From Parcubacteria bacterium C7867-004 (GTDB taxonomy: Bacteria > Patescibacteriota > Minisyncoccia > Phycocordibacterales > Phycocordibacteraceae): a DNA stretch of 64,000 bases. The DNA lies in assembly GCA_001189075.1 (NCBI GenBank), contig LFCN01000006.1:169384-233383 (forward strand). The letters run 5' to 3'. Both the position numbers and the translations under genes were made by a program. Position 1 is the first letter of the stretch. The number at the start of each line of letters is the position of its first letter. Shown piece after piece: positions 12,340-64,000 of the stretch. Under the pieces are notes generated by a model. That model saw only the letters and a program-made list of their open reading frames with translations. It was not told the DNA's origin and made no database searches.

Positions 12340-12354
12340 TCAGCCATACTTTTT

Positions 12355-25136: not shown

Positions 25137-25206
25137 AGCGGGGTAGAGGAGAGGTACCTCGGGAGGCTCATAACCTCCAGACGCCGGTTCGATTCCGGCC
25201 CCCGCA
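25137..25206 (+). tRNA. tRNA-Met (CAT), initiator-like, no encoded CCA
   Basis: AGCGGGGTAGAGGAGAGGTACCTCGGGAGGCTCATAACCTCCAGACGCCGGTTCGATTCCGGCCCCCGCA. The 3' end …CCGGCCCCCGCAA matches bacterial fMet tRNA. Position 1 pairs with 72 as an unpaired A·A, and A11:U24 is present. Confidence 0.75.
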
Positions 25207-25210
25207 ACAA

Positions 25211-25250
25211 GATATAAGAAAACCGCCGAAAGGCGGTTTTCTTATATCTC
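25211..25250. terminator. 17-bp perfect palindrome terminator
   Basis: gatataagaaaaccgcc-gaaa-ggcggttttcttatatc. Confidence 0.55.
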
Positions 25251-25323
25251 TGTAGAAGCACAAATCCTCTTATGCAAATAGTCTGGCGTTTACATTGCAC
25301 CGATCATTGCTACAGTAATCTAT

Positions 25324-25854: not shown

Positions 25855-25865
25855 TTTCGAAAGCA

Positions 25866-25908
25866 TGATAAGAGAAAACCGCCGAAAGGCGGTTTTCTCT
25901 TTATCATG
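25866..25908. terminator. Palindromic hairpin sharing the core of the 25211 hairpin
   Basis: atgataagagaaaaccgcc-gaaa-ggcggttttctctttatcat. Confidence 0.5.
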
Positions 25909-25982
25909 CTCCATGAGTTTTGTGTGGAGAGAAGGCTATCCACGAGACCGAGAATGCTACTATTCGTGTACGTATTTCTTTG

Positions 25983-27014
25983 ATGGGAAAAAGTATCTTT
26001 CTTAAGGGATCAAAGCAGCGACCCCGCGTTTCTTCGGAGTACCTGATCATTCCCAATAAATATTCTTTCCAGCTCATACAGAGCGTCAAGACACCGATCG
26101 CGACACCGGTCGCGCAGGAGGCGCATATCGCCGCTGCGGCTCCAGAACCTCTGGCGGCCGAAGCAGTTGCTCCGGTACTGGCTCAAGCGCCGCAGCAAGA
26201 GATTCCGAAAGTAACAGCCAAGCGCATCGAGCAAGAGCCGAAGACTGGCGTCGATGAAAGCAAGAGGCTCTTTCTCCGGCTTGCTGGGGTGGCGGGGCTC
26301 GGCGTGGTCGCGGCGACGGTGCTCCCCAAGAGCGCGCAGGCATATGTCATGGGAAGCTCGCCTACCTCAGGGGTCGTGGGGGTAAAGAACGCGGCCAATA
26401 CGCGTATCGATCCCGCTACAGAAGGTGGCAATCTCGCCTCAATAAAGACGAATACTGATCCGTTCAATGCCTCCGGAGCCGGCGGGTACGTGCGTCAGGA
26501 CTCCACCGGGACCATAGCGAAGGAAACCGGAGGGAATCTCGCGACCATCGCGGGGAAGGATTTCGCTACGCAGGCGACGCTCGCGGAGATCAAGGCGCAG
26601 ACCGACAAGTTCACCTTCAGTGGAAGCAACCTGCTCACATCGGGAGGCGGCGGAGGGGGAGGTGCGGTAACGGTCAACGACACGACCGATACGCAGATAA
26701 ACCCCGCGACCGACGACAGCGCGATGCTGCTGAGAAGGCTTGTGCGCCAAGTCGATTCGCTCGCTGTAGTCGACTCCGCGCAGCGCCAGAAGGTAACGAT
26801 CGATTCGATCACCGGTTCGCTCACGTTGAGCACCATTACGACGGTCGGTACGGTTACGGCTGTTACGACCGTATCGACGGTCACCACCGTCAGCACACTC
26901 ACGTCTGCAACCAACCTCGTTGCGCTCGGCGGCGTCGACGGTCGTTATCTACATATAGATACAGCGAGGAACATGTATGCTAACGGTATTCGCACGAATC
27001 TTCTGTTCTCCTAA
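25983..27014 (+). CDS. Membrane-anchored hypothetical protein with Tat-like signal-anchor and NLAxIKxxTDxF repeats
   Basis: KRLFLRLAGVAGLGVVAATVLPKSAQA hydrophobic segment about 95 aa from ATG 25983. Three repeats (NLASIKTNTDPF, NLATIAGKDF, TLAEIKAQTDKF), a poly-Gly stretch and a T/V-rich tail. The start is uncertain; the track gives 25920. Confidence 0.45.
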   Translation: MGKSIFLKGSKQRPRVSSEYLIIPNKYSFQLIQSVKTPIATPVAQEAHIAAAAPEPLAAEAVAPVLAQAPQQEIPKVTAKRIEQEPKTGVDESKRLFLRLAGVAGLGVVAATVLPKSAQAYVMGSSPTSGVVGVKNAANTRIDPATEGGNLASIKTNTDPFNASGAGGYVRQDSTGTIAKETGGNLATIAGKDFATQATLAEIKAQTDKFTFSGSNLLTSGGGGGGGAVTVNDTTDTQINPATDDSAMLLRRLVRQVDSLAVVDSAQRQKVTIDSITGSLTLSTITTVGTVTAVTTVSTVTTVSTLTSATNLVALGGVDGRYLHIDTARNMYANGIRTNLLFS

Positions 27015-27020
27015 TTTTGC

Positions 27021-29858
27021 ATGGCTGTTACCAACAATCTGAAGCCGCAAGTAGACCTCCCTGTCTGGGAGTGGTGCCGCTTTACGCCTACCGCAACTGT
27101 CGCCCTTTCAGGGATGGCCACAGCCGATGATGGTAGCGCTCGCTTTATCTATTACATCTCCGCTTCCTCGTTCTATCGATATGACACGTACGCCGATGCG
27201 TGGCAGCAGCTCGCGACTCCGAACACTGCTCCATTCGCGGCACTCTCGCTTAGGTATACCGGATTCCGTGGATACCACGGAAGGGTACTGAGTGCGGGCG
27301 CAACCAGCGTGCAGATCGGTGGACTCCGTGGAGCAACGCTCAACGGGAAGACCATAAAGATACTTAGTGGTCCAGGAATAGGCCAGGAGCGCGTACTCAC
27401 GTTCACTGGAGAGACCATCCACGATATGGGTGTGATCACGGCGACGACGACGCTCACGCTTGCTGATTCCACGAAGAAGTGGAAGTTCAATCAGTGGTCG
27501 GGATACGTCGTCGGTATCACGTTCGGCACGGACGCGACCCAATACAAGAAGATCCTCTATAACGATGCAACCACGCTGTATATCAGTGACGCGAACCTCC
27601 AGCCCCACGATCCCTGGAATAACCAGCCGTTCGCTGCGATAGCGCCGTATGCGCTCCCGGTCACGACCGCCGGTTCGCAAGCGCACTTCCAGATTATTTC
27701 CCAGACGTATTCGGTTGATGCGTGGACTGTACAGCCCGACTACCGTTCGAATTACACTACCAATACCGGCGGCGTATACCTATTCTCCGGCTCTAACTCC
27801 GCACCCTTTTTCACGCTCCAGTACTACGACATCATTCATGACTCGTGGCAGACCAAGACCTGTAACCAGGCACTGCTCGCCGCGACGCTCAGTACCGACT
27901 GTACGTTCGAGCGCATGGCCAAGACCGGTACCGCATTCCTCTCCTCCACGGCGACCGCAGGCGCGGCCCGTACGCTCACCGACTCCGTACAGACGATGAC
28001 CGTCGATCGGTATGCGAACTATCGCGTGCTCATAACGGGAGGAACTGGCATCGGCCAGAGCCGCAGGATCATCTGCAACACTGCGACCGTTTTCACGGTG
28101 AACAAGGCGTGGGACACGAATCCGGACGCCACTTCGACCTATGAGATATGGGGAGACTATGACAAGGCGTTCTTCTCCGGTCATGCTGGAGCAGCGATGC
28201 TTCAGTATTCACCTTCAAACGATTTCTGGATGCAGGGTGCCAGCTTCGATGACGGTGTGGTCGCGAACATCGGCGTGAAGATGAGCGGATGGGAAGCACT
28301 CGGTGTGACTACCGGCGCAAGGATCGCCGCGGGCGTGACAGCAGTGAATGCGACCCCGACTGCGGGAGGTACGGGATATTTGGTGGGTGACATCCTGACG
28401 TGTTCGGTGGGCGGTACGGCAGCCCGCGTCATCGTTACAGCCATAGCGCCGACTGGCATCGTGAGTACTATCGAGCTCGTCGCGGCGGGTACCGGCACGG
28501 GCTTTACGACCGGCACCGGTAAGGCGACGACTGGCGGCACCGGCTCCGGCTGCACCATCGAGATAACCTCAGTCGGCGCTACGTGTCTTGTCACTACCGC
28601 TTCCGCAAACTGGTTCAAGACCGGAGACTCAGTAACATTCTCCGGATGTTCTGACAGCGCCTATAACGTCGCACACACCATTCTCGGCGCGGGTTCCACT
28701 ACAACCTTTGATGTCGCGACCTCAGCGGCAGGTTCCATGGCCGCTTCGAACTCGCAGTCGACCACCGTAATCGTCGATGCGTCGAAGAGCTGGACCACGA
28801 ATGAGCATGTCGGAAAGCTCGTACATCTCTCGGTCGCAGGCACTGCTCCTACTGCGCAGATCCGATGGATAACCGCCAATACCGCGACCACACTTACAGT
28901 CGCGACCATAGTCGCGGGAGTGAACGGTACCTCGAAGTACGCTATCTATGATTCGAAAGTGTTCGGTACGGATAATCAGTTCAAGCCCGCCAACCAGCAG
29001 AACTGGGGTCATGCGTCCGGCGGCTCGACCACGACGCTCATCGACGCATCGAAGAGCTGGGTTGTGAATGCCTGGGCAGGGTACAAGCTCCGTATAGAAT
29101 CAGGAACAGGTTTTGCAACCGGCATAATCTCTATCACCTCGAACACAGCGACGACGCTCACCTATACCACCCAGGGATTCACGCCGGACGCGACGACACA
29201 CTACGAGATTGCCGACAGCTGGGGACTCATGACGGCGGCATCGACCACCACCGTAACCGAGACCACGACCAAGAACTGGACAACGAACATGTGGGCAGGA
29301 AAGAGGATTCGCATCACGGGCGGTACCTCGCCGGGGCAGGAGGTAGCGATAACATCGAACACCGCAACCGTCATAACGATGGCAACGGTAACGCTCCCTG
29401 ATACCACCTCTACCTATGCGATACTCGGTGCTCCAGCACGCGGTGCGGGTACTCAGCTTATATGGATATGGGGGAATTCAGACGCAACAACGAAAGGGAG
29501 GTTGATGCTTTCGCCACGAGGCGGCGCTTCGAACACGTTCGATCTCTATGACATACCGACCGCACGGTGGGTGTACGGCTATTTCATATCTCCCCAAGCC
29601 GAGACGTTCACGACAGGATCCATGTATGCGTATGACGGGGAGAATACCGTGTATCTCCAGAAAGACGCGACCGGAAGGGTGTTCGCGTACAATGTATCGA
29701 CCAATGCGGTCAGTGCGCTCGGTACGATCCCGTACGGTCATTCGACCGCTATCATCGGGAACCGAATGGAGATAGTCGAGACCACGGATGGTCTCAAGTA
29801 CCTCTACATGATGCGTCATACGGGATCCGAGATGTGGCGCATGCTCATCTTCTTTTAA
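27021..29858 (+). CDS. 945-aa repeat protein with five copies of a roughly 45-aa module
   Basis: Recurrent (T/L)(A/I/V)D(A/S)(S/T)K(K/S)W(T/K)(T/V)N…W(A/S)G…(I/L)…G(T/G)(G/A)…GQ…I…SNTATT(L/V)T(V/Y) blocks at about aa 145, 310, 600, 675 and 755. No signal peptide. Confidence 0.55.
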   Translation: MAVTNNLKPQVDLPVWEWCRFTPTATVALSGMATADDGSARFIYYISASSFYRYDTYADAWQQLATPNTAPFAALSLRYTGFRGYHGRVLSAGATSVQIGGLRGATLNGKTIKILSGPGIGQERVLTFTGETIHDMGVITATTTLTLADSTKKWKFNQWSGYVVGITFGTDATQYKKILYNDATTLYISDANLQPHDPWNNQPFAAIAPYALPVTTAGSQAHFQIISQTYSVDAWTVQPDYRSNYTTNTGGVYLFSGSNSAPFFTLQYYDIIHDSWQTKTCNQALLAATLSTDCTFERMAKTGTAFLSSTATAGAARTLTDSVQTMTVDRYANYRVLITGGTGIGQSRRIICNTATVFTVNKAWDTNPDATSTYEIWGDYDKAFFSGHAGAAMLQYSPSNDFWMQGASFDDGVVANIGVKMSGWEALGVTTGARIAAGVTAVNATPTAGGTGYLVGDILTCSVGGTAARVIVTAIAPTGIVSTIELVAAGTGTGFTTGTGKATTGGTGSGCTIEITSVGATCLVTTASANWFKTGDSVTFSGCSDSAYNVAHTILGAGSTTTFDVATSAAGSMAASNSQSTTVIVDASKSWTTNEHVGKLVHLSVAGTAPTAQIRWITANTATTLTVATIVAGVNGTSKYAIYDSKVFGTDNQFKPANQQNWGHASGGSTTTLIDASKSWVVNAWAGYKLRIESGTGFATGIISITSNTATTLTYTTQGFTPDATTHYEIADSWGLMTAASTTTVTETTTKNWTTNMWAGKRIRITGGTSPGQEVAITSNTATVITMATVTLPDTTSTYAILGAPARGAGTQLIWIWGNSDATTKGRLMLSPRGGASNTFDLYDIPTARWVYGYFISPQAETFTTGSMYAYDGENTVYLQKDATGRVFAYNVSTNAVSALGTIPYGHSTAIIGNRMEIVETTDGLKYLYMMRHTGSEMWRMLIFF

Positions 29859-36891: not shown

Positions 36892-38336
36892 TGAAAAGAT
36901 TCCTCATCTTCTTGCTCCTCGCTCTGTCGCTTCCCGCGACCTCGCATGCGGCAACGATGAGCCTCATTCCGTCCGATACTACGGTTGATACCGGGGATAT
37001 CGTCACGGTCCGTGTAGTGGTTAATCCGGGGGGCACGGCGGTGAACAATGCCGAAGCGGTAGTGAGGTTCCCGGCGGGTGTTCTCGAGGTTCTTTCTGTA
37101 AGCAAAGCTGGCTCGATGTTCCCGCTCTGGGTAGAGGATCCGAGCTTCTCGAACGGGGCGGGGACGGTGTCTTTTAACGGAGGCGTTCCGAACCCGGGCG
37201 TCTCGAGCGCGGGCACGGCGCTCTCGATAAGCTTTCATGCGGTTCGAGCAGGTACCGCGTCCTTGTCGCTTTCGGAAGCGGCAGTACGTGCGAACGACGG
37301 TCTCGGTACCGATGTCCTCACCGGCTCCTCAGGAACGCAGATCACGATCTTATCCGCTTCAGCGCCCGTTACTCCCACTACACCTGTACCGACTGCACCT
37401 GCTACTGGTACGGGAGCTGCGCCGGTGAGCGCAGGACCGATAGCGATCTCTTCGCCGACACACCCCGACTCGAATATCTGGTACGCAAATACCACCCCGT
37501 CCTTCACCTGGTCACTGCCGAAGGGGGCAACCGGCGTATCGCTCGGCATCGATCAATCGCCAGCAGCGGCACCTGGTGTCACCTACACCACCGCGATAAC
37601 CGAGAAGACCGTTGCATCGCTTGAAGACGGCACCTGGTACTTCCGCATGAAGTATCGCTCGGGAGGAGCCTGGAGCACGATAAGCTCCTACAAGGTTCAG
37701 ATTGATTCCAGTTTGCCTGAGATAACAAATCACACGGTCCTCTATGACGAGACAGAGCGCGCAGTTCTAATTGAGGTAGCGGGAACCGATTCAGGATCGG
37801 GCATTGAGCGGTACGATGTCTCGATAGACGGCGCTGAGCCGATCTCGGTCCCAGCGAGCAAGTTTGATGGAAAGTCGCAGTCTTTCCCGGTTCGCTCCTC
37901 CGGCATCCATAAAGTGACCATAACCGCGATAGATCACGCCGGGAACCGGGTGAGCGTCGAGAACTCCTTCTCGGTATCGCAATCGCTGAGCAATCAGCCG
38001 CTGTTCTTCATCGGCTCATTCGGCGTGAGTCTCCTGGCGGTGCTTCTTGCCATGAGTCTCTTCTCGATGATCTCGCTCATCGCGGCGCTCTTCGCCTGGT
38101 TCACGCTCATCTACTACCGCCATCGGAAGCATCCGACCGTTCCGGCGGTGCGTAAGGACATGCACGAGGGCTTCCTTAAGATTAAGTCGAATATGGAGAT
38201 AGATATCCGGGCGCTTGATAGGGCACGCATGAAGCGCGAGCTCTCGCGGGAGGAGGCGATGCTCTACCGCAGGCTAGTTGCCAACGTGTCTGCCCTCGAG
38301 CGTCATATGGACAGGATACTGGATGATATGGATTAG
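36891..38336 (+). CDS. Membrane-anchored cohesin-like domain protein 2 with Ig-like middle region and cytoplasmic tail
   Basis: Signal peptide. SLIPSDTTVDTGDIVTVRVVVNPGGTAVNNAEAVVRFPAGVLEVLSVSKAGSMFPLWVEDPSF…GTASLSL follows the cohesin beta-sandwich pattern. TM at about aa 375-400, then a charged cytoplasmic tail. Confidence 0.55.
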   Translation: MKRFLIFLLLALSLPATSHAATMSLIPSDTTVDTGDIVTVRVVVNPGGTAVNNAEAVVRFPAGVLEVLSVSKAGSMFPLWVEDPSFSNGAGTVSFNGGVPNPGVSSAGTALSISFHAVRAGTASLSLSEAAVRANDGLGTDVLTGSSGTQITILSASAPVTPTTPVPTAPATGTGAAPVSAGPIAISSPTHPDSNIWYANTTPSFTWSLPKGATGVSLGIDQSPAAAPGVTYTTAITEKTVASLEDGTWYFRMKYRSGGAWSTISSYKVQIDSSLPEITNHTVLYDETERAVLIEVAGTDSGSGIERYDVSIDGAEPISVPASKFDGKSQSFPVRSSGIHKVTITAIDHAGNRVSVENSFSVSQSLSNQPLFFIGSFGVSLLAVLLAMSLFSMISLIAALFAWFTLIYYRHRKHPTVPAVRKDMHEGFLKIKSNMEIDIRALDRARMKRELSREEAMLYRRLVANVSALERHMDRILDDMD

Positions 38337-38359
38337 GTTCTATCATCAATTACTCAAAA

Positions 38360-40342
38360 TTATTTGGCCACTCGGATTTTGATAGTTATTGTTGTGCCAG
38401 AATTTTGACCACACTCAGCAAATATAATTCCGTTGTGCAACTCTACAATTCGTTTGACTATTGCAAGTCCAATACCGGTTCCAGGAATATTCCGAGAAGC
38501 ATGATCTCCTCGATAAAATCTATCAAAGATGTAAGGTAAGTCAGTTGGGGCAATTCCTATCCCGCTGTCTATAATCGATAAAACTACAAAATCTGACTCG
38601 GTTCTCAATGAGAAGCCAATCTGTTTCGGCCCCTCTTCATTCATGTACTTCAGAGAATTGCTGGCAATATTAGTTATTGCCTCACGCATTCGTTTCCGGT
38701 CGCCATAAATATATATACCCGACTCAATCGCAAGGCCTACTTCTATTCCTCTGTTACCCGCGATGACCGTTATCTCCTCCGCAACTTCATGTGTAAGTTC
38801 TGAGAGGTTAAATAAATCGTTTACTTGATTTGCCTCGCTCTCTACTTGAGAAAGTGATAAGAGATCATAAATAAAAATCGAAAAGTTCTTCAACGATTGC
38901 TCGAAGGAACAAATGGTGCTATCTGTTCGAAGCCTAGAATCCATTCGGTCAAGTTTTGTCTGAAGTATCGCCAGTGGAGTCTGCAGATTGTGGGATAGAT
39001 CAGTAATTATTTGATGCTCCCTGATTCGTGATTCTTTGAGTTCTTGAGTTCTTTCTTCAACCTTTTGCTCTAATTCCGCTGCATGTTTTTCAACATCCAT
39101 AAAAAGTTGAACGCGAGAGAGACATGTTGCTGCCTGGTTTGTAAATGTAAGTAAAAGCTGTAAATCGCGTTTTTCATATGGATCACCCGATAATTTATTT
39201 CCAACGAATATACGACCGATGGTTTGTCCATCAGAGTTAATTGGCGCTGACATAGTTCCAACTGAGTCACTGTCCAGTTGTTCAACATCATTTTTGCAAC
39301 TGGATTCGCGAGTAAGTAGGACTCTGACGGATTGAGAATGAAATATTAGTGCAAGTTTTAATTCCACCTTATCAATAAATTCTTCAAATGTTCTAGCCGT
39401 GTAAAGAACCTCACTGAGTGAGTGCATTGCCTCCGCATAATCGTACGTGTCTTTAAAGAAAATCTTATCTGTGAGCTTTCGGAAACTTTTTTCGATTACA
39501 GGAATGCTGAAAGCACTGACCACTACAGCAATGCATGACGCAAAAAGTATGTTTATGTCTGATGAGTAAGTGACAAAGGTCTCTAGAACTACTATTATTG
39601 TGATATAAAATCCCACCACTAGGGTTATAAGTAGACTATAGGTTATTCCATTTCGAACCGCATTTTTAATGTCAAGTAACTGATGACGGGTGGTTGCGTA
39701 AACACAGCCCATTGCAAAAAAGATTGTACAAAGTGGGCCCAGTGAGTAGAACCTATACTCTCCAGTAAGAGGCAAGGCCACTGTAAATAATAGTGTGCCT
39801 GCTCCTGAGAGAATAAGTCCTGAAAGGGCATACCATAGTTGCATTCTTCTCGTATAGCCAGTTTTGTTTGCCAGCGCGTAAGCGAGACGCGCAATTCCAT
39901 AAAGTAAATTACTTAAGGAATATATAAAAACATAAGTATAAATTACACCAGGAACTATTTCTGCTGGACGCACGATTGGGAAAGACATCTCCAGTATTGC
40001 GTGTGGTGAGAATGACGCTGCAGCAAGGGCTATCCCTGGAAGCGCGTATAATAAGAATCTACGCCAAGGTGGAAAACGACCGTCAATAAGTAAGTCAGTG
40101 AGTACAAATTGCACTATAACTTTAAGCATGGCGACCATAAGTGCCAGGCTGCAGCTAATGTATAGGCAACTTGTTGTATAGCAGACATCTGCAATTACAT
40201 TACTTCCAATCCATATCGTCACCAGGACCAAGTAAGTTCCAAGAGTTACTTCAAGCGCCGATCGTCTTCGTATAAATAGAATTATGGATGCAACAGCGAA
40301 TATGACTGAGACGAATGCTGCTGCATAGGTTATTTCAAACAT
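38360..40342 (-). CDS. Sensor histidine kinase with a large polytopic membrane sensor domain
   Basis: About nine N-terminal TM helices. H-box ITDLSHNLQTPLAILQ. HATPase_c N/G boxes (…NSLKYM…IIDSGIGI…GTGIGLAIVKRIVELH…). Lies in a markedly AT-rich segment. Confidence 0.8.
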   Translation of the reverse strand: MFEITYAAAFVSVIFAVASIILFIRRRSALEVTLGTYLVLVTIWIGSNVIADVCYTTSCLYISCSLALMVAMLKVIVQFVLTDLLIDGRFPPWRRFLLYALPGIALAAASFSPHAILEMSFPIVRPAEIVPGVIYTYVFIYSLSNLLYGIARLAYALANKTGYTRRMQLWYALSGLILSGAGTLLFTVALPLTGEYRFYSLGPLCTIFFAMGCVYATTRHQLLDIKNAVRNGITYSLLITLVVGFYITIIVVLETFVTYSSDINILFASCIAVVVSAFSIPVIEKSFRKLTDKIFFKDTYDYAEAMHSLSEVLYTARTFEEFIDKVELKLALIFHSQSVRVLLTRESSCKNDVEQLDSDSVGTMSAPINSDGQTIGRIFVGNKLSGDPYEKRDLQLLLTFTNQAATCLSRVQLFMDVEKHAAELEQKVEERTQELKESRIREHQIITDLSHNLQTPLAILQTKLDRMDSRLRTDSTICSFEQSLKNFSIFIYDLLSLSQVESEANQVNDLFNLSELTHEVAEEITVIAGNRGIEVGLAIESGIYIYGDRKRMREAITNIASNSLKYMNEEGPKQIGFSLRTESDFVVLSIIDSGIGIAPTDLPYIFDRFYRGDHASRNIPGTGIGLAIVKRIVELHNGIIFAECGQNSGTTITIKIRVAK

Positions 40343-40397
40343 AACTAGTGAATGGTAAATCAGGAATGATGCTACTAATATTTCTTTTAATTCAGAC

Positions 40398-41066
40398 CTA
40401 TACTCCCATTCGATAGCCTCTTCCTGGCACAGTCTGTATCAAACGATCTTTACTCATGTCATCAAGTTTTTTTCGTAACGAGAGGATATGGGATTCAATT
40501 GTATTTGAGAAAATATCAACACTCATGTCCCATACGTGCTCAAGTATCATTCCACGAGAAAGTACAATACCCTCATTACGCATTAGGTACTGTAAAAGCA
40601 TAAATTCCTTTCGTGTAAGATAGACACGTTTATCGCCTTTACGTACGCTCCCGCTCCTGGCATCCAAGAAAATGTCGTCAACGATTAACTCGTCTTCCTC
40701 TAACCCAGCAGGCCGACGAAGCAATGCGCGAACTCGTGCAAGTAGTTCCTCAAGGATAAAAGGTTTTGTTAAGTAATCATCGGCGCCTGCATTAAGTAAT
40801 GTGACCTTGTCATTTATGCCCGTTTTTACTGAAACCACTAATATTGGTAAATTTTTTCCTACGGCTCGTATATCCTTACAGACTTGGATACCTTCTTTTT
40901 TAGGTAATAGATTGTCTAAAATAATAAGGTCGTAGTCATTTGTGCGAGCGAGGTATGATCCGATCTCTCCATCTACTGCGACATCGACTGCAAAAAATTC
41001 TGCAATTAAAGCTTCTTTAAGGAAGCATGCAATCTTAGGTTCGTCTTCTACTACTAGTATTCTCAT
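40398..41066 (-). CDS. OmpR/PhoB-family response regulator
   Basis: Receiver MRILVVEDEP…LIILD…K and a C-terminal winged-helix (…GRGYRMG). Upstream of, and probably co-transcribed with, the kinase. Confidence 0.85.
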   Translation of the reverse strand: MRILVVEDEPKIACFLKEALIAEFFAVDVAVDGEIGSYLARTNDYDLIILDNLLPKKEGIQVCKDIRAVGKNLPILVVSVKTGINDKVTLLNAGADDYLTKPFILEELLARVRALLRRPAGLEEDELIVDDIFLDARSGSVRKGDKRVYLTRKEFMLLQYLMRNEGIVLSRGMILEHVWDMSVDIFSNTIESHILSLRKKLDDMSKDRLIQTVPGRGYRMGV

Positions 41067-41269
41067 ATTTAGTAGAGATTTTATATTTTCATTAACTGCT
41101 CAAATGGTAGCAACCTCGGCAGCTCTTTTTGAGTAATTGATAAAATATGCTGTGAATAGCCCGCTTATTTTTCCTATATCTTTTCTCCAGGATTATTTTA
41201 TATTTATCTATCTTCTATATTTGCGTAACAAACTTGCCCTTACTACTTTCTGGCACTACAGTATGCAGT

Positions 41270-41974
41270 ATGCAAGCCGTAATAGTCGCCGCCGGAGAAG
41301 GGAAGCGCATGCAGCCGCTTACTTTCGAGCGCCCAAAGCCTCTTATTGAGGTGAATGGAAAACCCCTTATCGAGCACATCATTGATGCCTTGCCACCAGA
41401 AATTGACGAGATAATCATCGTCATCGGGTACAAGGGGCAAATGATCAAAGACCATCTCGGAGACTCTTACAAGGGTCGGAAAATAGTCTATGTCCATCAG
41501 TGGATGGCAGCTGGCACGGCGCACGCACTCTCTATGGCCCGCCCGTTTCTCAAGGGAAAGTTCCTCTTCATGTATGCGGATGACATCCATGGAGCCGAGG
41601 CGTTGGCGGAGACCATTAAGCATCCGTATTCGATACTCGCCGCTCCGCACGAGGATCCGTCGAAGTTCGGCGTTATAGAGAAGAATGAGGACGGGACGCT
41701 TTTGAGGATGGTTGAGAAGCCTGTGAATCCGGCAACCAACCTTGTTAATACTGGAGGCATCATGCTCGATGAGCGAATATTCGACTATCCGGCGCCGCGC
41801 CATGAGACCGGGGAGTACTACATAACCGAGCCTATCGAGAGCCTCTCAAAGGATCACCCTATTATGGTTATCGAGCAGCCGCTCTGGATACCGGTTGGCT
41901 ATCCGGATGATATAGCGAAAGCGGAGGAAATCCTGAAAGCTCGGGCGCTATCCCAAGATTCAGATCTTATCTAA
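41270..41974 (+). CDS. Sugar-phosphate nucleotidyltransferase (NTP_transferase family)
   Basis: MQAVIVAAGEGKRMQPLTFERPKPLIEV N-terminal signature G-x-G-x-R-x(n)-K. The start is corrected from 41234 to ATG 41270. Confidence 0.7.
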   Translation: MQAVIVAAGEGKRMQPLTFERPKPLIEVNGKPLIEHIIDALPPEIDEIIIVIGYKGQMIKDHLGDSYKGRKIVYVHQWMAAGTAHALSMARPFLKGKFLFMYADDIHGAEALAETIKHPYSILAAPHEDPSKFGVIEKNEDGTLLRMVEKPVNPATNLVNTGGIMLDERIFDYPAPRHETGEYYITEPIESLSKDHPIMVIEQPLWIPVGYPDDIAKAEEILKARALSQDSDLI

Positions 41975-42021
41975 GAAATCTCCAGCATCCCATCATCCAT
42001 ATAGAGCTACCTTAGCTCTAT

Positions 42022-42729
42022 ATGGCAAAGTCGAAAGAAAAACTGGAAGCGTATGCTCTGCGAAGGCAAGGCCAAAGCGTTAAGGAGATCGCCCGAAAGC
42101 TTGGCGTTGCAAGTAGCACGGTAAGTATCTGGACTCGGGATATACCCCTCACGGATGTTCAAAAGAAGCACTTGCTTGATCGACAGGTCGCAGCTGGCTA
42201 TCGAGGTCGCATACTAGGCGCAGAAACCAACAAAACAAGGAAAGCCGAGCGGATTCGAAAGGCTGCAGATACGGTTTCTAAGGAGATATCCTTATTCTCA
42301 AATGATGCTTTGTTCTTCACTGGTTTAGGTTTGTATTGGGGAGAAGGCACGAAAACGGAAACAAGTAGCGTTGGAGTTAGTAACACTGACCCAAGAGTCA
42401 TGCGATTGATGGTGCAATGGTTTACAGAATGCCTAGGAGTTAAGCGGTCAAGATTCATGCCAAGAGTATTCATCAGTGATACTCATAGAGATAGGGAGGA
42501 GACTATCACTCGCCATTGGATGGAAACTCTCGGTCTGCCTCGTACCCAGTTCAGGAAAACGGTTTTTCTTGATAAGGGTAAGAAGATTTACGAAAACCAC
42601 GATATGTATTATGGTGTTCTTGCACTCCGTGTGAGTAAGGGAGTAGACATCCGATATAGGATTCTCGCCCAAATCAGCCGAGTCGCGGAGCTTGTAAACG
42701 AAGATTGCTGGCGTAGCTCAGGTAGTTAG
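42022..42729 (+). CDS. HTH-containing protein with a single LAGLIDADG-like motif (candidate homing endonuclease)
   Basis: N-terminal HTH (SVKEIARKLGVASSTVSIW) and FFTGLGLYWGEGTK resembling the LAGLIDADG/GxxxGEG box. Lower GC than the flanks. The 3' end overlaps a tRNA-like sequence. Confidence 0.35.
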   Translation: MAKSKEKLEAYALRRQGQSVKEIARKLGVASSTVSIWTRDIPLTDVQKKHLLDRQVAAGYRGRILGAETNKTRKAERIRKAADTVSKEISLFSNDALFFTGLGLYWGEGTKTETSSVGVSNTDPRVMRLMVQWFTECLGVKRSRFMPRVFISDTHRDREETITRHWMETLGLPRTQFRKTVFLDKGKKIYENHDMYYGVLALRVSKGVDIRYRILAQISRVAELVNEDCWRSSGS

Positions 42730-42780
42730 AGCATCTCACTCATAAAGAGAAGGTCCCAAGTGCAAATCTTGGCGTCAGCA
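42707..42780 (+). tRNA. tRNA-like (anticodon CAT; Met/Ile2-type), possibly degenerate
   Basis: GCTGGCG-TA-GCTC…GAGC-A-TCTCA-CTCATAA-AGAGA-AGGTC-CCAAG-TGCAAAT-CTTGG-CGTCAGC-A. Good cloverleaf, but with a 31-39 A·A mismatch and G at T-loop position 55. No CCA encoded. Confidence 0.45.
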
Positions 42781-42863
42781 CAAGAGTTGTCTATGGCCCC
42801 GAAACGGGCTATATTCGAGAGGTTCGCAGGGCCACGAGTCGCGCGCTCGTGGCCATACAATCT

Positions 42864-42937
42864 GCGGTCGTAGCTCAACTGGTTAGAGCACCCGCCTGTC
42901 ACGCGGGAGGTTGCGAGTTCAAGTCTCGTCGACCGCG
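42864..42937 (+). tRNA. tRNA-Asp (GTC), no encoded CCA
   Basis: GCGGTCG TA GCTC AACTGGTT AGAGC A CCCGC CTGTCAC GCGGG AGGTT GCGAG TTCAAGT CTCGT CGACCGC G. Perfect cloverleaf. Confidence 0.85.
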
Positions 42938-42945
42938 CAAAGCAC

Positions 42946-42972
42946 AAGAGCCCCGAAAGGGGCTTTTGTCAT
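42946..42972 (+). terminator. Rho-independent terminator
   Basis: agagcccc-gaaa-ggggcttttgtc. Confidence 0.5.
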
Positions 42973-42998
42973 ACTTGGTACCCCCTATACTGAGTGTA

Positions 42999-43205
42999 AT
43001 GAAAACCATGATGTGGATTGGTATAGCAGTTGGGATCCTTGTTGTCGTCGGGTGGCTCTTCTATGCCTATGCGCTGATCAAGGATTCGCCGCTTTCCGGT
43101 GGTCCCGTATCGCCTACGAATCCTCCGCGCGTGCCCGCGAAGATATCCCTCAAAGAATATTTCCATCTCAAAGAAGGGATCCTTAAAGGAGGGATAATCG
43201 AATAG
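42999..43205 (+). CDS. Small single-TM hypothetical protein
   Basis: MKTMMWIGIAVGILVVVGWLFYAY… The track ORF from 42849 overlaps tRNA-Asp, so the start is moved to ATG 42999. Confidence 0.35.
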   Translation: MKTMMWIGIAVGILVVVGWLFYAYALIKDSPLSGGPVSPTNPPRVPAKISLKEYFHLKEGILKGGIIE

Positions 43206-60232: not shown

Positions 60233-60303
60233 TGCGGGATCGTCTAATGGTAGGACTACGGTTTCTGGTACCGTGTATCTAGGTTCGAGTCCTAGTCCCG
60301 CAG
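60233..60303 (+). tRNA. tRNA-Gln (CTG), U1:A72, no encoded CCA
   Basis: TGCGGGA TC GTCT AATGGTA GGAC T ACGGT TTCTGGT ACCGT GTAT CTAGG TTCGAGT CCTAG TCCCGCA G. Confidence 0.8.
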
Positions 60304-60325
60304 CTCGATATTTGTGTGTCATAAT
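60295..60325 (+). repeat. Repeat copy A: genuine tRNA-Gln 3' end plus promoter box (tgtgtgtcataat)
   Basis: gtcccgcagctcgatatttgtgtgtcataat. Confidence 0.5.
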
Positions 60326-60331
60326 TTGGAC

Positions 60332-60649
60332 ATGTATAACCCTGACGAAGGATCGGTGGAGGACTATCGTAAGAAAAGAGTCAAAGAATATTCAGAAGCC
60401 TTTGATAAGGTCAGCATGGTTCTGTTCGAACACGATCCAATTGGCTTAAATTTTGATGACAATGTTGATGAATATGAACTAGAAGCGGGAATGGTAATGA
60501 ATCGATTCCCAAAGGCTAATAATATAGACGAACTAGCGACAATCATTTTTGAGGTTTTTGTAGAATGCTTTGACAAGGAATTGGCTACTAGAAAGCGTGA
60601 GGTATATCAGCAAATAGCGAAGGAGGTCTGGGAAATTATAAAGACATAG
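60332..60649 (+). CDS. Hypothetical acidic small protein
   Basis: MYNPDEGSVEDYRKKRVKEY… The start is moved to ATG 60332 because the track start overlaps the promoter box. Confidence 0.35.
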   Translation: MYNPDEGSVEDYRKKRVKEYSEAFDKVSMVLFEHDPIGLNFDDNVDEYELEAGMVMNRFPKANNIDELATIIFEVFVECFDKELATRKREVYQQIAKEVWEIIKT

Positions 60650-60653
60650 CGAT

Positions 60654-61157
60654 ATGAAAAGGAAGAATCAAATTTTGCTCGCTGGATCTATCTTGCTACT
60701 TAGTCTAATTGCCTGCGGAGGCTTTTGGTACATGCAGAATATGTGTTTGGTTGACTGCGACAGCGAATCATCTACAGTCTCCGAAACCGACAAGGATCTA
60801 CTTCTAAAGGCGATTCGTGATTCATACGTACTACATGTTCGAACTGCGATAGACAACTACAAAGATGGAAATGAAGAAGGGTATTCTGATGTGGATTTTT
60901 CACCCTACACTGATTACCTCAAGAGTAAGTTTGTTCTGATGGAAATCGATAATAATGCCATCGGAGGCGGTAAGACAATGCTCATAGCATTTACGGATAA
61001 ACCAGATGTTTTCTTCTATGTGTGGGTCTATGATGAAGGTGATGGGTCTTTGGATCTGCGTACTTTCAAGCCATATGAAGAAATATCAGTTGATCAAGCA
61101 AGGCAGATATACCAGTCGTCAGAACCAATGATCACAGAGCTAGGTCTGGCAATTTAG
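60654..61157 (+). CDS. Putative lipoprotein
   Basis: Signal peptide with a lipobox-like LSLIACGG. Confidence 0.4.
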   Translation: MKRKNQILLAGSILLLSLIACGGFWYMQNMCLVDCDSESSTVSETDKDLLLKAIRDSYVLHVRTAIDNYKDGNEEGYSDVDFSPYTDYLKSKFVLMEIDNNAIGGGKTMLIAFTDKPDVFFYVWVYDEGDGSLDLRTFKPYEEISVDQARQIYQSSEPMITELGLAI

Positions 61158-61162
61158 AAAAG

Positions 61163-61209
61163 TTCCCACGCCGTACCAGACACGCAGCCCGACATTTTTG
61201 TGGCATAAT
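61163..61209 (+). repeat. Repeat copy B (degenerate tRNA-3'-end-like plus tgtggcataat box)
   Basis: ttcccacgccgtaccagacacgcagcccgacatttttgtggcataat. Confidence 0.45.
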
Positions 61210-61215
61210 CTCATT

Positions 61216-61611
61216 GTGAGTTACTCATACGATAAAGAATTCAAAAGACGCCTATGGGTGGGAGGCTCGATAGCTATTCTAGGAATGATAGGTTTCTTTA
61301 CGTTGATGTCTGTCTTAAATTTATTTGGTTCAAAAATTGAGTACACAGTGCCATATCTTTTGAGATCTCTAGTAGCTTTCTTACCGCTGGTAATAGGTTT
61401 AGCCGGGGCGGGATATATTTATGGAGGGTTGAGGGCTGCATATTGGTGGTTTGCAAATTGGAGCATGCTTTTATTAACTGCCAATTTAATCGGCTATCTC
61501 GCTAAGGACGTCCCTCAAGATATACGCAATACATTTCCACTAATTTTCTTCGTAGCACTAATTATCGGGATCCGCCTTTGGAATAAATGGGTGGAAAGTA
61601 AGAGCCGCTAG
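61216..61611 (+). CDS. Small polytopic membrane protein
   Basis: Three TM helices. The start is uncertain (GTG 61216; the track has a TTG at 61198 inside the promoter box). Confidence 0.3.
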   Translation: MSYSYDKEFKRRLWVGGSIAILGMIGFFTLMSVLNLFGSKIEYTVPYLLRSLVAFLPLVIGLAGAGYIYGGLRAAYWWFANWSMLLLTANLIGYLAKDVPQDIRNTFPLIFFVALIIGIRLWNKWVESKSR

Positions 61612-61622
61612 GGTTTAGATTT

Positions 61623-61670
61623 GTTCGAATATCGTCCCAGACGGCCAGCTCGCTATTTTCGTGTCATAAT
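61623..61670 (+). repeat. Repeat copy C
   Basis: gttcgaatatcgtcccagacggccagctcgctattttcgtgtcataat. Compare the tRNA-Gln 3' end GGTTCGAGTCCTAGTCCCGCAGCTCG. Confidence 0.5.
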
Positions 61671-61677
61671 CAGGTTT

Positions 61678-61854
61678 ATGAACGACGAACAAAAAATGGA
61701 TGATGAGAAGGGGAACTGTAAGCGTTGCGGACATCCCTTTGACCCACACCAAATATTTGCTGACCCAAATGATCTGGGTAAGGGCGGTGTGATGAAGTGT
61801 CCGGTTGAGGGCTGTGAGTGTGTCAGCGACATTAGTTTGCCTCATAAAAGTTAG
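61678..61854 (+). CDS. Small zinc-ribbon protein
   Basis: CKRCGH…(about 24 aa)…CPVEGCEC, a four-Cys ribbon. 58 aa. Confidence 0.35.
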   Translation: MNDEQKMDDEKGNCKRCGHPFDPHQIFADPNDLGKGGVMKCPVEGCECVSDISLPHKS

Positions 61855-61897
61855 AATAGCGTCCCAGACAGCCAGATCGTTATTTTCGTGTCATGAT
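61850..61897 (+). repeat. Repeat copy D
   Basis: gttagaatagcgtcccagacagccagatcgttattttcgtgtcatgat. Confidence 0.5.
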
Positions 61898-61905
61898 TCT
61901 TCCAC

Positions 61906-62145
61906 ATGCAGAATGATACGCAGCTAAAGTTTAAAGAGATTCAAAAGATTCTTTCTGAAGAGTGGGATGCAGTTCCTGACGCACCTACTGATGAATACGA
62001 TAGCCACATACATCGAATCATCTCAATGTATGCCGATGGAAACCTCGACACGACAAGGCTCACATCTTATCTGGATTCTTTATTCGGTATTCAGGAAAAT
62101 ACCAAGGAGATTTCAGAGAAGCTGTTAAGTATTCTCTCTGTTTAA
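61906..62145 (+). CDS. Small hypothetical protein
   Basis: 79 aa, acidic and soluble. Probably co-transcribed with the next ORF, 6 nt downstream. Confidence 0.3.
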   Translation: MQNDTQLKFKEIQKILSEEWDAVPDAPTDEYDSHIHRIISMYADGNLDTTRLTSYLDSLFGIQENTKEISEKLLSILSV

Positions 62146-62151
62146 ACTTAT

Positions 62152-62649
62152 ATGGAGTTATTCCTACCGACGCTAGCAAATAATAGGACTTGGCGCAGAT
62201 ACTCCAAGACCATCGTCATAACAGGGGTAGTATTCTGGATCCTACGTATCACCCTTCAGTTTGGTTTTACAAATCCTCTTGCGGATGCGGTACTTGGCTT
62301 TTTTGCGCTGCTACTCATTCCCGCCATCTTTATAGTATTTCCGTACCGAGCTTTACATATTGTATTTAGAATATTAATTGCGCTTTTTCTTTTCGCGTTA
62401 ACGCTCATTTCGCTTTTGTTCTTACTCTTTCAGTCCTGGACCCTGAGAGATACTTTTAATCGGGGAGAGAATCCCTGGCAGCAGACACAGGATGTTTATG
62501 ACGAAAATCCCTTTCTAAGAGAAGTTGTTTATGTTGGAGATTGTGGCGCAACCTGCGCATCTAATACGTATGGCGTAAAGGAATTGATGCTCATTCCGTA
62601 CGTCTTGAAATTCAGAATTCCTGGAACCTTTGTTGACCTCCCGCACTAA
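62152..62649 (+). CDS. Polytopic small membrane protein
   Basis: Three or four TM helices and a C-terminal Cys-containing soluble part. Confidence 0.35.
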   Translation: MELFLPTLANNRTWRRYSKTIVITGVVFWILRITLQFGFTNPLADAVLGFFALLLIPAIFIVFPYRALHIVFRILIALFLFALTLISLLFLLFQSWTLRDTFNRGENPWQQTQDVYDENPFLREVVYVGDCGATCASNTYGVKELMLIPYVLKFRIPGTFVDLPH

Positions 62650-62663
62650 GATTTGAGATAAGC

Positions 62664-62704
62664 GGTTCTACTAATATCCCCAGACACCCAGCTCGAGATA
62701 TAAT
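62664..62704 (+). repeat. Repeat copy E
   Basis: ggttctactaatatccccagacacccagctcgagatataat. Confidence 0.45.
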
Positions 62705-62710
62705 TAAGAG

Positions 62711-62905
62711 ATGAAAGGTAGCTCCTTAATATTGCTGGGCTTGCTGCTGCTAGTTCCTATTTTCTTTAATCTATCAGGAAGATTTGAGAGCTCTTGGGAC
62801 TGGTCGAATTTCGATTCGATCGGATACAACCTATCAACTTTAATAGGCATATTTGGTGGAGGGTTATTAATTTGTTACGGATTCAAGGAGCGAAAGATAA
62901 AATAA
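62711..62905 (+). CDS. Small two-TM membrane protein
   Basis: 64 aa, hydrophobic. Confidence 0.3.
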   Translation: MKGSSLILLGLLLLVPIFFNLSGRFESSWDWSNFDSIGYNLSTLIGIFGGGLLICYGFKERKIK

Positions 62906-62906
62906 A

Positions 62907-62953
62907 GGTTCGAAAGTCGTACTAAACTCCCAGCTTGTACGGTGTGCCATAAT
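62907..62953 (+). repeat. Repeat copy F
   Basis: ggttcgaaagtcgtactaaactcccagcttgtacggtgtgccataat. Confidence 0.45.
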
Positions 62954-62959
62954 TTCTAA

Positions 62960-63298
62960 ATGACTGACCAGAAACTGGATGGTAAGTGGTCGCGAGCTGA
63001 GCAAGATGAAAGGCATCGGCTGATCGAGGTCTTTTATTTGTGTATTGCTTTCATTGTCGCGCAAGCAGTCACATATCTTGTGACAGGCCATTTACTCATC
63101 TGCGGCTCATATGAGTCTTGCAACGAAAGCAGCGCAAAAGACTTCATCCTAATAGGGGAAATATTATTGATAATCATAGCTTTCTTAAGCCCTAGAGTAT
63201 GGCGTTTTGTCCGGTGGTATCCGCGTACATGGGGATCATGGACAGCAATAGCGCTTTTCTTTGTGGGTGTCGCATTTCTTACACTTTCTTTTTTATAA
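62960..63298 (+). CDS. Small membrane protein
   Basis: 112 aa with three TM helices. Confidence 0.3.
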   Translation: MTDQKLDGKWSRAEQDERHRLIEVFYLCIAFIVAQAVTYLVTGHLLICGSYESCNESSAKDFILIGEILLIIIAFLSPRVWRFVRWYPRTWGSWTAIALFFVGVAFLTLSFL

Positions 63299-63303
63299 TA
63301 GTA

Positions 63304-63334
63304 CCTGACATCCGCCAGTGGCTCGTGTCATAAT
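63304..63334 (+). repeat. Repeat copy G (short)
   Basis: cctgacatccgccagtggctcgtgtcataat. Confidence 0.4.
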
Positions 63335-63340
63335 TTCTTT

Positions 63341-63913
63341 GTGGAACCACAAACAAAAATTACGGTTGAATCGAACTGGTATGGTGTCTTTATTGTTTTA
63401 CTATTCCCCATTGTAGGAATTTTCGCCTGGGGTACCCATGAGACGACACTAATAGATATCATTATTATATTAGGTATATACGCTCTACTTTTTTTAGTAA
63501 CTTTAGCCTCAAAAGTATTTACGTATATTGAAATTTATCCAAACCACACTATTACAAATCGTCGCGAGTTTAAAATAAAGTCCTTTGATGTTTTAGATGT
63601 GGTGTATGTGGGGAGGATTTTTTTGAGTAGGGCAATGTTCGTTTTCATCTTCTTTAAAGGCAAGAACGGATTGATAGATTACACAGCTATCTGTGAAGGA
63701 AGCTATACCAACAAAGCTTTACTCTCTGTTTTTACTGAATTAAGAAAGTTTAATAAAGATTTAGAAATAAATGAGGAATACGAACTTTTTTTGAAGGATA
63801 GTTATCTCGATAGAGGCATAAAGAATTTAGACATATATAGAGAAGTAAAAAAGAAGCTTGAGAAAGAGGGCTATGGCCTTGTTCATTCAAACCTGATGAG
63901 TGAGCTATTTTAA
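63341..63913 (+). CDS. Small membrane protein
   Basis: GTG start, two N-terminal TM helices and a Lys-rich C-terminus. Very AT-rich. Confidence 0.3.
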   Translation: MEPQTKITVESNWYGVFIVLLFPIVGIFAWGTHETTLIDIIIILGIYALLFLVTLASKVFTYIEIYPNHTITNRREFKIKSFDVLDVVYVGRIFLSRAMFVFIFFKGKNGLIDYTAICEGSYTNKALLSVFTELRKFNKDLEINEEYELFLKDSYLDRGIKNLDIYREVKKKLEKEGYGLVHSNLMSELF

Positions 63914-64000
63914 AGAATACGTTGTTAAATAGGTCCAAAATCATTTTCGGAAGTAAGAAGTATTTGAATTAATATTTATACAAAACTTCCAGTTCCTTTG

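Follow-up and report, generated by a model that had tools for sequence, protein, structure and literature searches.

The distal end of a 64,000-nucleotide (nt) stretch of the genome of Parcubacteria bacterium C7867-004 (contig LFCN01000006.1; the whole stretch is referred to below as the window) carries a transfer RNA (tRNA) gene, tRNA-Gln(CTG), which is followed by a low-GC island of small genes separated by copies of a short repeat. This island is probably an array of gene cassettes that arose through site-specific insertion right at the 3' terminus of tRNA-Gln. The repeat is a sharply bounded, conserved 27-nt site with the consensus GTTCGAATATCGTCCCAGACGGCCAGC, preceded by (TAA)nnnn. It recurs downstream of tRNA-Gln in environmental contigs, and related strains diverge exactly at it. 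A first-pass annotation of the window had proposed a tRNA-Gln-anchored, cassette-like series that arose by site-specific insertion at the tRNA end and that belonged to no standard integron or island type, and this proposal is supported by the present analysis. Two of its details had to be revised. The repeats are copies of a distinct, conserved site rather than decayed duplicates of the 3' end of the resident tRNA generated anew with every integration, and they are not welded to the promoter that follows: strain breakpoints fall exactly between the two. What appeared to be a tRNA fragment fused to a promoter is actually formed by two adjacent ends of different cassettes.

Limits of the island and conservation of the 27-nt site

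The tRNA-Gln(CTG) gene was located with ARAGORN at 60233-60304 on the forward strand. Its last 22 nt, the 3' part at 60283-60304 (GTTCGAGTCCTAGTCCCGCAGC), are the insertion point in the chromosome, and foreign DNA is found from 60305 on. The guanine-cytosine (GC) content is 0.36-0.44 inside the island, whereas the remainder of the window has about 0.57, in agreement with the drop to about 40% described earlier, and this drop coincides with the end of tRNA-Gln. As anticipated in the first-pass annotation, the array runs past the end of the window. The sequence there was taken from 100% identical records, namely loci L001 and L002 (contig DGYM01000008.1 of assembly GCA_002398375.1 and a Logan contig), which reach up to window-equivalent position 73913. 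Two further sites lie in this part, the last of them at 66894-66920, and beyond about 66920 the GC content climbs back to the host level (0.48-0.59). Consequently, from the GC shift and the last repeat copy, the island extends from the base after tRNA-Gln over 6.6 kb (60305-66920), and it comprises 8 cassettes and 15 open reading frames (ORFs). Genes for DUF1761 and MetK lie 5' of tRNA-Gln, and an extracytoplasmic function (ECF) sigma factor gene and other ordinary genes lie 3' of the island. As a separate observation, the Logan assembly of run SRR2043728 breaks within tRNA-Gln (window positions ~60245-60260), where contig L003 ends and L001 starts with an overlap of ~16 nt. This break could fit a graph branch at the array junction, and equally a tRNA common to other genomes in the sample.

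A hidden Markov model (HMM) built from three copies of the site was searched against 74 kb of sequence. It finds nine copies, all on the forward strand, all intergenic and all within the island, with E-values from 7e-14 to 0.09, as well as one weak copy with E=6; the best match elsewhere has E>7. The pattern CCCAGACNNCCAGCTCG, with up to 3 mismatches allowed, gives 10 matches against 2.3 expected, and 10 matches were reached in 0 of 100 shuffles. All seven elements listed in the first-pass annotation were recovered in their places, as six sites (Table 1) and the tRNA-Gln end, and the copies starting at 61162, 62908 and 63301 are too degenerate for scoring by a pan-metagenome model of the site. 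Positions left free in the search pattern are still conserved: of 84 copies, 83 have C at position 4, 76 have C at position 27 and 77 have A at position -6. When the copies are aligned on the match, conservation begins and ends abruptly and the flanks on either side are unrelated. The motif GTTC(G/T/C)AA stands at the 5' edge of the site and not at the 3' edge, and the consensus as read contains a self-complementary stretch of just 3-4 bp, whose closing position is variable. In an Rfam search of 13 loci tRNAs alone were matched; neither the site nor a recurrent element found after the junction corresponds to a known RNA family.

The same site was found in environmental DNA. A metagenome scan with the 26-nt pattern GTTNNAATANCGTCCCAGACNNYCAG returned at least 80 environmental contigs, several of which hold 2-5 exact copies, where only a few chance matches are expected by the authors' own estimate. 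Over the 80 contigs an HMM detects 138 copies, which are co-oriented within every contig. Site-bearing contigs contain 22 tRNAs, 19 of which are tRNA-Gln (CTG or TTG), and the tRNA-Gln lies upstream of the sites on the same strand in all 19 cases. The site recurs across genomes in which the flanking protein is just 55-72% identical, and the source names of the housekeeping proteins that flank the arrays are Paceibacterota or Parcubacteria. In relatives of the organism the order DUF1761-tRNA-Gln is kept and the DNA after the tRNA differs. One relative (L124/L148) has two near-identical copies of the window's best site enclosing other cargo, a protein of 302 amino acids (aa) of unknown function, with sortase and surface-protein genes directly upstream of the first copy.

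The ends of the cassettes can be read from comparisons of related loci. L157 and L172 are 99.8% identical over 1938 nt and split exactly after ...GACCGCCAGC. The next cassette of L157, ~650 nt in length, has a counterpart with 96% identity in L160, in an unrelated upstream context; the cassette ends in a degenerate site of its own, GTTCTTGACCGTGACAGTCAGC (...GTCAGC), after which the contexts differ again. Strongly degenerate copies, which have runs of no more than ~6 nt in common with the canonical site, still give nucleotide-exact junctions. In two different arrays a NUDIX cassette has sites at its borders. L209 and L220 show 99.9% identity as far as the tRNA-Gln end and are unrelated beyond it, where L209 has a cassette array and L220 an element encoding a large serine recombinase (LSR). 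These pairs also bear out the earlier expectation that close relatives differ in cassette content. Like sequences follow both the tRNA ending in ...GCAGC and the site ending in ...CCAGC, which places the joint at or in the common CAGC. The breakpoints fall exactly behind CAGC, and the site therefore closes the upstream cassette at its 3' end and the promoter-like box opens the next one at its 5' end. The order within a cassette is thus read as predicted promoter, gene or genes, stop codon and site. Site-specific insertion of cassettes at CAGC is regarded as rather likely, and the breakpoint rule, applied after tRNA-Gln, gives the cassette ends listed in Table 1.

The anatomy of the cassettes is consistent from array to array. 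Successive sites are separated by a median of 616 nt (range 213-4402), and the ORFs inside arrays lie mainly on the site strand (71 against 21 on the opposite one). For 75 of 87 copies, an ORF on that strand has its end no more than 80 nt upstream of the site, most often with a gap of 4 nt, which puts the stop codon at -7 to -5, and some stops fall inside the site, as in g4 of the window. On the 3' side the site is followed by a promoter-like box or by a terminator hairpin, the terminators being found at copies read as array ends. In the window there are seven boxes of the form TGnCATAAT, TGTCATGAT or GATATAAT, each with its end 6-8 nt ahead of the ATG or GTG start of an ORF; a -10-like box ahead of each small ORF had indeed been reported. 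The pattern TGTGNCATAAT, with at most 1 mismatch, has 6 window matches against 2.0 expected, 5 of the 6 in the island. A -10-like hexamer stands 5-9 nt before the start codon at 77 of 122 metagenome cassette starts and at 7 of 7 in-window starts, and 40 of the 77 have a TANNNT hexamer whose end is exactly 6 nt upstream of the ATG. A generic sigma-70 and terminator scan gives no enrichment, because the boxes are of the extended -10 type without a -35 element. The boxes are treated as predicted promoters, and their spacing from the ATG is the geometry that would be expected for leaderless transcripts.

Transmembrane (TM)-like segments occur in 9 of the 15 island ORFs, a lipobox in one (g2), and one product (g4) is a Zn-ribbon-like peptide, much as the small membrane, lipoprotein and Zn-ribbon genes had been described at first. 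Pfam scans of all 15 island ORFs and of 12 further ORFs of the window and its flank gave no significant match for any island protein. The g2 family has 261 representatives at E<=1e-3 and g11 has 15 database homologs, by which both are evidently members of real families. Cargo elsewhere includes NUDIX, HIT, CYTH, SDR, VOC and alpha/beta-hydrolase-like proteins, as read from sequence, and L172 contains defence-type ATPases and restriction-modification genes with Pfam support. The first four junctions of the window are alike (TCGnTATTTnnGTGTCATAAT), a likeness that reflects a common family of cassette 5' ends, seen also in L203 and L211.

Two further observations concern the cassette ends. A ~70-nt element, CAACTCGTGCTAG...GAGACGTGTCGA, stands directly after the CAGC junction, of site or tRNA, in several unrelated arrays (L141, L172 at 6128-6200, L173, L199, L156, L211, L182 and L205). 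It shows two hairpins or a possible pseudoknot, scores below the gathering threshold of every Rfam family, and could be a cis-regulatory RNA of a cassette family. In L189 (1-1174) two neighbouring cassettes with genes on the opposite strand have unrelated interiors, while ~45 nt ahead of the site and ~25 nt behind it are shared, among them a promoter-like TTGACA...TATAAT on the reverse strand; in some cassette families the conserved ends are therefore longer.

A number of known repeat classes were considered and set aside. A DNA-uptake sequence is ruled out by the absence of copies outside the island in 74 kb, and repetitive extragenic palindromic (REP) elements, miniature inverted-repeat transposable elements (MITEs) and dif/Xer modules were rejected on anatomy. 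An array of clustered regularly interspaced short palindromic repeats (CRISPR) consists of 28-37 nt repeats, spacers of ~30-40 nt, a leader and cas genes. It was rejected on the spacing of the sites given above, with ORFs between them, and on the lack of cas among the called genes. A scan of a genome collection with a 14-nt pattern returned single chance matches in unrelated phyla only, from which nothing was concluded, and in the literature no paper was found with the site sequence or with such arrays in bacteria of the Candidate Phyla Radiation (CPR).

Relation of the site to the tRNA-Gln end and to large serine recombinases

The likeness between the site and the tRNA end depends on how the two are aligned. 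Generic local alignment of the site with tRNA tails shows no preference for tRNA-Gln and has been superseded by a junction-registered comparison; the site HMM gives no match to the resident tRNA-Gln end. With the junction as the point of alignment, the 14 junction-proximal nt of the site, CCCAGACGGCCAGC, match seven distinct tRNA-Gln tails at 9-11 of 14 positions (9 with the resident tRNA-Gln, 11 with other tRNA-Gln variants). The tRNA-Asn tails match at 8-9 and the remaining tRNAs at 2-6 of 14. The distal box of the site, GTTCGAAT, equals the T-loop box GTTCGAGT, yet lies 5 nt farther from the junction. Taken together, the shifted box and the proximal match indicate that the site is a derivative of the tRNA-Gln 3' end with a 5-nt insertion, conserved as such. 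The resemblance to the tRNA-Gln 3' end that had been noticed at the outset was thus lost in generic alignment and recovered in the junction-aligned comparison, once the insertion is allowed for.

A shift of this kind is known from LSRs, in which the attP and attB half-sites have the same proximal region and the zinc-ribbon-domain (ZD) motif is displaced by 5 bp (PMC3783163). In silico, the pair formed by the site and the tRNA satisfies this rule, with a common proximal, recombinase-domain (RD) region and a ZD motif shifted by 5 bp. Genes for LSRs adjoin the 3' ends of tRNA-Gln or tRNA-Asn, or a tRNA-Gln-like pseudo-site that ends in CCAGC. Some strains have a DnaX-tRNA-Gln(TTG) flank with 99.9% identity to that of an array-bearing contig, and in these a serine recombinase gene (at least 495 aa) follows the tRNA. 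The L220 element (10500-13330), ~2.8 kb long, is located at the tRNA-Gln(TTG) end, with the LSR ORF running antisense through the tRNA. It also encodes a 339-aa protein of unknown function and has near-identical terminal inverted repeats of ~115 nt, beginning with AGCCCGAATAAAAC; a palindromic GC stands at the joint. A relative of this LSR with 76% identity (L229) adjoins a site outside any tRNA, GTTCTAGCCCGAGGAGGCCAGC, which is a CCAGC pseudo-site. In L172 an LSR (45% identical) and a Rep gene lie upstream of cargo that ends in a canonical site, the LSR being 4.7 kb upstream. A viral scan with the L172 LSR protein gave no match. The LSR family has more than 7000 database matches, with the source names Paceibacterota, Parcubacteria and Minisyncoccia. 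None of the contexts of g11 homologs is a tRNA-Gln array; one homolog lies on an LSR island at tRNA-Asn and another after tRNA-Asp with a half-site remnant.

Related arrangements were observed at other tRNAs. More distant serine recombinases of the same family stand at the tRNA-Asn(GTT) 3' end in L215 (10327-11943) and in L231-L234, with the ORF running through the tRNA, and the L234 element carries conjugation-type genes, TraG/VirD4-like and relaxase-like. In L217 (9299-10960) a g11 homolog follows tRNA-Met/tRNA-Asp, and after it come GGTTCCAATAGCGTCC, fused to a tail resembling the tRNA-Asp 3' end (ACTAGGGCGCGCA), and a terminator. This locus hints at analogous sites, likewise expanded by 5 nt, for other tRNAs.

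Proposed mechanism, alternatives and known systems

In the proposed mechanism, a cassette would be linked to the chromosome precisely behind the ...CAGC of either the tRNA or a site already in place, and cassettes would therefore stack head to tail, with the last site abutting the old tRNA flank. They would pass through circular or otherwise free intermediates. The recombinase would not be encoded in the array and would act in trans. The best candidate for it would be an LSR of the family that is abundant in Patescibacteria and inserts at the same tRNA-Gln nucleotide; the cassette site and the tRNA end would then correspond to the attP and attB half-sites of such an enzyme, identical next to the junction and differing by 5 bp in the place of the distal box. 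An LSR acting in trans on half-sites is the leading candidate mechanism, and a tentative one. The wider reading is that Parcubacteria/Paceibacterota, and possibly a larger part of Patescibacteria, have an integron-analogous gene-capture platform of their own, in which single-gene cassettes with a 27-nt half-site mimicking the tRNA-Gln 3' end are placed and swapped at the tRNA-Gln end by an unlinked recombinase, probably an LSR working on one-sided sites. This is a serious possibility, held with not quite even confidence.

Several results weigh against the proposed mechanism. No recombinase or integrase was detected in the island, the 64-kb window or the 10 kb after it, in a partial check that consisted of Pfam searches of ~27 proteins and a regular expression for tyrosine-recombinase motifs and included no serine-recombinase or HUH screen. 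The downstream search that the first-pass annotation had suggested thus came back empty. The HxLRH-type motif of that regular expression is absent from all ORFs of at least 100 aa across 74 kb. All-against-all clustering of ORFs reveals no recombinase family that recurs in the 80 loci, free circular cassettes were not observed, and a search for circular-contig signatures gave none that was convincing. Canonical LSR and tyrosine-recombinase sites are dyad-symmetric. The LSR att sites are quasi-palindromic over 40-50 bp, with two half-sites round a central dinucleotide, whereas only one half-site is seen here; a search on the right-hand side of the junction revealed neither dyad symmetry nor a distal box in inverted form, and the site is one-sided. 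The ends of the L220 element (GCCCGAATAAAAC...) are unrelated to the site, and the element carries no 27-nt site. A collection of viral contigs contains no real copy of the site, its six matches being coding-sequence coincidences, none of which extends past the pattern. The side next to the tRNA is the same in L157 and L172 and the distal side is not, which insertion at the tRNA end only does not predict. Finally, strain variation was seen in related lineages and not for this exact array, the organism being present in few public assemblies.

An alternative history would make the repeats scars of serial integration: integrase-bearing islands, prophages or LSR and Rep elements would have inserted at tRNA-Gln and later lost their modules, leaving cargo between old att copies. 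Such a history would draw on well-known processes, since att sites are classically found in tRNA genes, and for Prochlorococcus tandem elements with partial tRNAs between them have been documented. It also accords with the LSR elements at this exact site, with the succession of LSR, Rep gene, cargo and site in L172 and with the g11 homolog on an LSR island at tRNA-Asn. However, with cassettes down to 227-242 nt and a promoter-like box right at the junction, it would need precise deletion of the integrase module many times, and tblastn with one LSR and ORF clustering revealed no remnants of an integrase, either in the island or in the 80 loci. The site shows conservation instead of decay, its sequence is not that of the resident tRNA, and the same small cassette occurs with exact ends in different arrays. 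A classical tRNA-integrated island would have an integrase gene at one end, and in the partial check described above none was found at 60305-66920 or within 7 kb beyond. Its direct repeats (attL/attR) would copy the resident tRNA 3' segment, and here the evidence is mixed: a terminal copy is present at 66894-66920 and the site is tRNA-Gln-like when aligned at the junction, but it has the 5-nt insertion and the site model gives no match to the tRNA end. Serial scars are on balance rather unlikely.

The 27-nt sequence could also be a regulatory signal of the host or of the cassette (an operator or UP-like element acting on the promoter downstream, or a messenger RNA 3'-end or processing signal), with arrays that vary by transformation and homologous recombination anchored on the tRNA or the 27-mer. 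The place of the site just upstream of promoter-like boxes is compatible with this, and 27 nt is close to the minimal homology for RecA; prepilin-like N-termini in several window ORFs at ~16.2-20.7 kb hint at a possible capacity for DNA uptake. Against it, the distance from site to start codon varies from 17 to 148 nt, so that there is no fixed geometry, and terminal copies (e.g., the one at 66894) are followed by terminators or host flank and not by promoters. A flank-dependent structure is unlikely given the unrelated flanks and the lack of an Rfam match, strongly degenerate copies still give exact junctions, and all copies in all loci are co-oriented. A regulatory role of this kind is judged distinctly improbable. 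The last explanation, a chance or compositional artefact of AT-rich intergenic DNA in which the small ORFs are not genes, could appeal to the three weak in-window copies and to the missing Pfam matches of the island proteins. It is excluded by HMM E-values down to 1e-13 with all copies in one 6.6-kb stretch and on one strand, by the recurrence of the same 27-mer in 80 independent contigs and by the conservation of g2 and g11.

Read as a cassette array, the island has its closest counterpart in integrons and in clusters of attC sites lacking integron-integrases (CALINs). Common features include head-to-tail, co-oriented cassettes of ~0.2-1 kb, mostly with one small gene of unknown or accessory function, one 3' site per cassette with the stop codon at or in it, a fixed primary insertion site, and cassettes that are common to, and shuffled between, arrays. 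In contrast to integrons, no IntI tyrosine recombinase was found adjoining the array in the partial Pfam and regular-expression check, and the primary site is a tRNA 3' end rather than attI. The attC sites are imperfect inverted repeats (R''-L''...L'-R') that are conserved in structure and variable in sequence and end in GTTRRRY, whereas the 27-nt site is conserved in sequence and its consensus lacks a palindrome. Most cassettes here have a predicted promoter-like box of their own, whereas integron cassettes are mostly promoterless and use a common promoter, Pc. The hosts also differ, being Parcubacteria/Paceibacterota.

Other systems resemble the array in single respects. The islands and tycheposons of Prochlorococcus are tRNA-anchored genomic islands with partial-tRNA repeats (bioRxiv 10.1101/2020.12.28.424599). 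They too form a flexible island by a tRNA, with stacked units, tRNA-3'-like repeats between them and newcomers that displace older units from the tRNA; their recombinases include LSRs, and some elements couple integrase and replication modules with cargo, as L172 does. However, their units are multi-kb and bring their own integrase, and their repeats copy part of the resident tRNA, whereas here single-gene cassettes without a detected integrase are separated by a conserved, 5-nt-inserted derivative that is common to many genomes. With the attP/attB pairs of LSRs (A118/LI, Bxb1, phiC31) the site and tRNA end have in common the junction-proximal sequence, an 8-bp distal box shifted by exactly 5 bp, which makes each half-site of the partner with the more distant box 5 bp longer, the absence of long direct repeats, and LSR genes at the same junction. 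They differ in that no LSR is linked to the arrays in general and that the LSR element of L220 uses other terminal sequences. In the pdif (XerC/D) system of Acinetobacter plasmids, sites of ~28 nt bound reshuffling accessory modules and the recombinase is encoded elsewhere. Dif-like sites have two 11-nt inverted arms, a 6-nt spacer and alternating orientation. Short conserved sites that bound small reshuffling modules are thus found in both cases, but the site described here shows no symmetry of this kind, never changes orientation within an array and is bound to a tRNA gene. No description of a tRNA-anchored, integron-like cassette platform of this type was found; it represents a new site family in a new host phylum, and the enzyme class is probably different as well.

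Individual cassettes, other window features and significance

The cassettes of the array are listed in Table 1. The ending CCAGT, seen in the weak site of cassette 6, is also present among canonical site copies.

Table 1. Cassettes downstream of tRNA-Gln, with predicted promoter boxes, genes and 3' sites (window coordinates, continued beyond 64000).
Cassette	Coordinates	Strand	Box	Genes	3' site
1	60305-61188	+	TGTCATAAT, 60317-60325	g1 60332-60649, 105 aa; g2 60654-61157, 167-aa lipoprotein, lipobox LIAC	61162-61188, degenerate, GTTCCCACGCCGTACCAGACACGCAGC
2	61189-61649	+	TGGCATAAT, 61201-61209	g3 61216-61611, 131 aa, 3 TM-like segments	61623-61649 (+), canonical GTTCGAATATCGTCCCAGACGGCCAGC; 46 bits, E=2e-13 (pan-metagenome model)
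3	61650-61876 (227 nt)	+	TGTCATAAT, 61662-61670	g4 61678-61854, 58-aa Zn-ribbon-like peptide	61850-61876 (+), 25.8 bits; g4 stop TAG inside site
4	61877-62692	+	TGTCATGAT, 61889-61897	g5 61906-62145, 79 aa; g6 62152-62649, 165 aa, 4 TM-like segments	62665-62692, E=0.028
5	62693-62934	+	GATATAAT, 62697-62704	g7 62711-62905, 64 aa, TM-like or signal-like N-terminus	62908-62934 (+), degenerate; E=0.029 (three-copy HMM)
6	62935-63319	+	TGCCATAAT, 62945-62953	g8 62960-63298, 112 aa, 3 TM-like segments	63301-63319 (+), strongly degenerate, ends CCAGT; E=6, weak
7	63320-65661 (in window to 64000)	+	TGTCATAAT, 63326-63334	g9 63341-63913, 190 aa; g10 63969-64307 (-), continues past window end	65639-65661
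8	65662-66920 (outside window)				66894-66920, terminal, then host-level GC

Other parts of the window also deserve a short description. A second low-GC stretch (0.39-0.49) at 38000-43000 ends at a tRNA-Met/tRNA-Asp pair (42707-42938). It contains genes for a histidine kinase (38360-40342, reverse strand) and a response regulator (40398-41066, reverse strand), a nucleotidyl-transferase-like gene and a 235-aa ORF with an HTH_23 domain (42022-42729), which overlaps the start of tRNA-Met. This stretch may be another tRNA-associated island, and it holds no copies of the 27-nt site. Another tRNA-Met (25137-25208) is followed by a dip in GC (0.49), by ORFs of 176, 364 and 945 aa that lack Pfam matches and by a glucosaminidase-domain protein (region 25137-29858). 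At 16257-20685 several ORFs have prepilin-type N-termini (GFTLIELLVV-like), read from the sequence itself. Together with their upstream neighbours they may form a type IV pilus or competence-like cluster, which could serve DNA uptake.

Patescibacteria, or CPR bacteria, have tiny streamlined genomes, and how they gain and exchange accessory genes is poorly understood. The array is a candidate for such a mechanism that is defined at the level of sequence. The 27-nt tag and the tRNA-Gln anchor are markers with which the cassette pool can be listed in existing metagenomes and strain-level turnover tracked, and the hypothesis on the enzyme is directly testable with an LSR acting on half-sites. Should the enzyme use one-sided sites beside a tRNA end that is conserved universally, it would also merit attention as a tool for genome engineering. 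The finding would carry the idea of the cassette array beyond integrons, to another site chemistry and another part of the bacterial tree. If it holds true, ultra-small genomes would draw on a cross-species pool of membrane, defence and small-enzyme genes.

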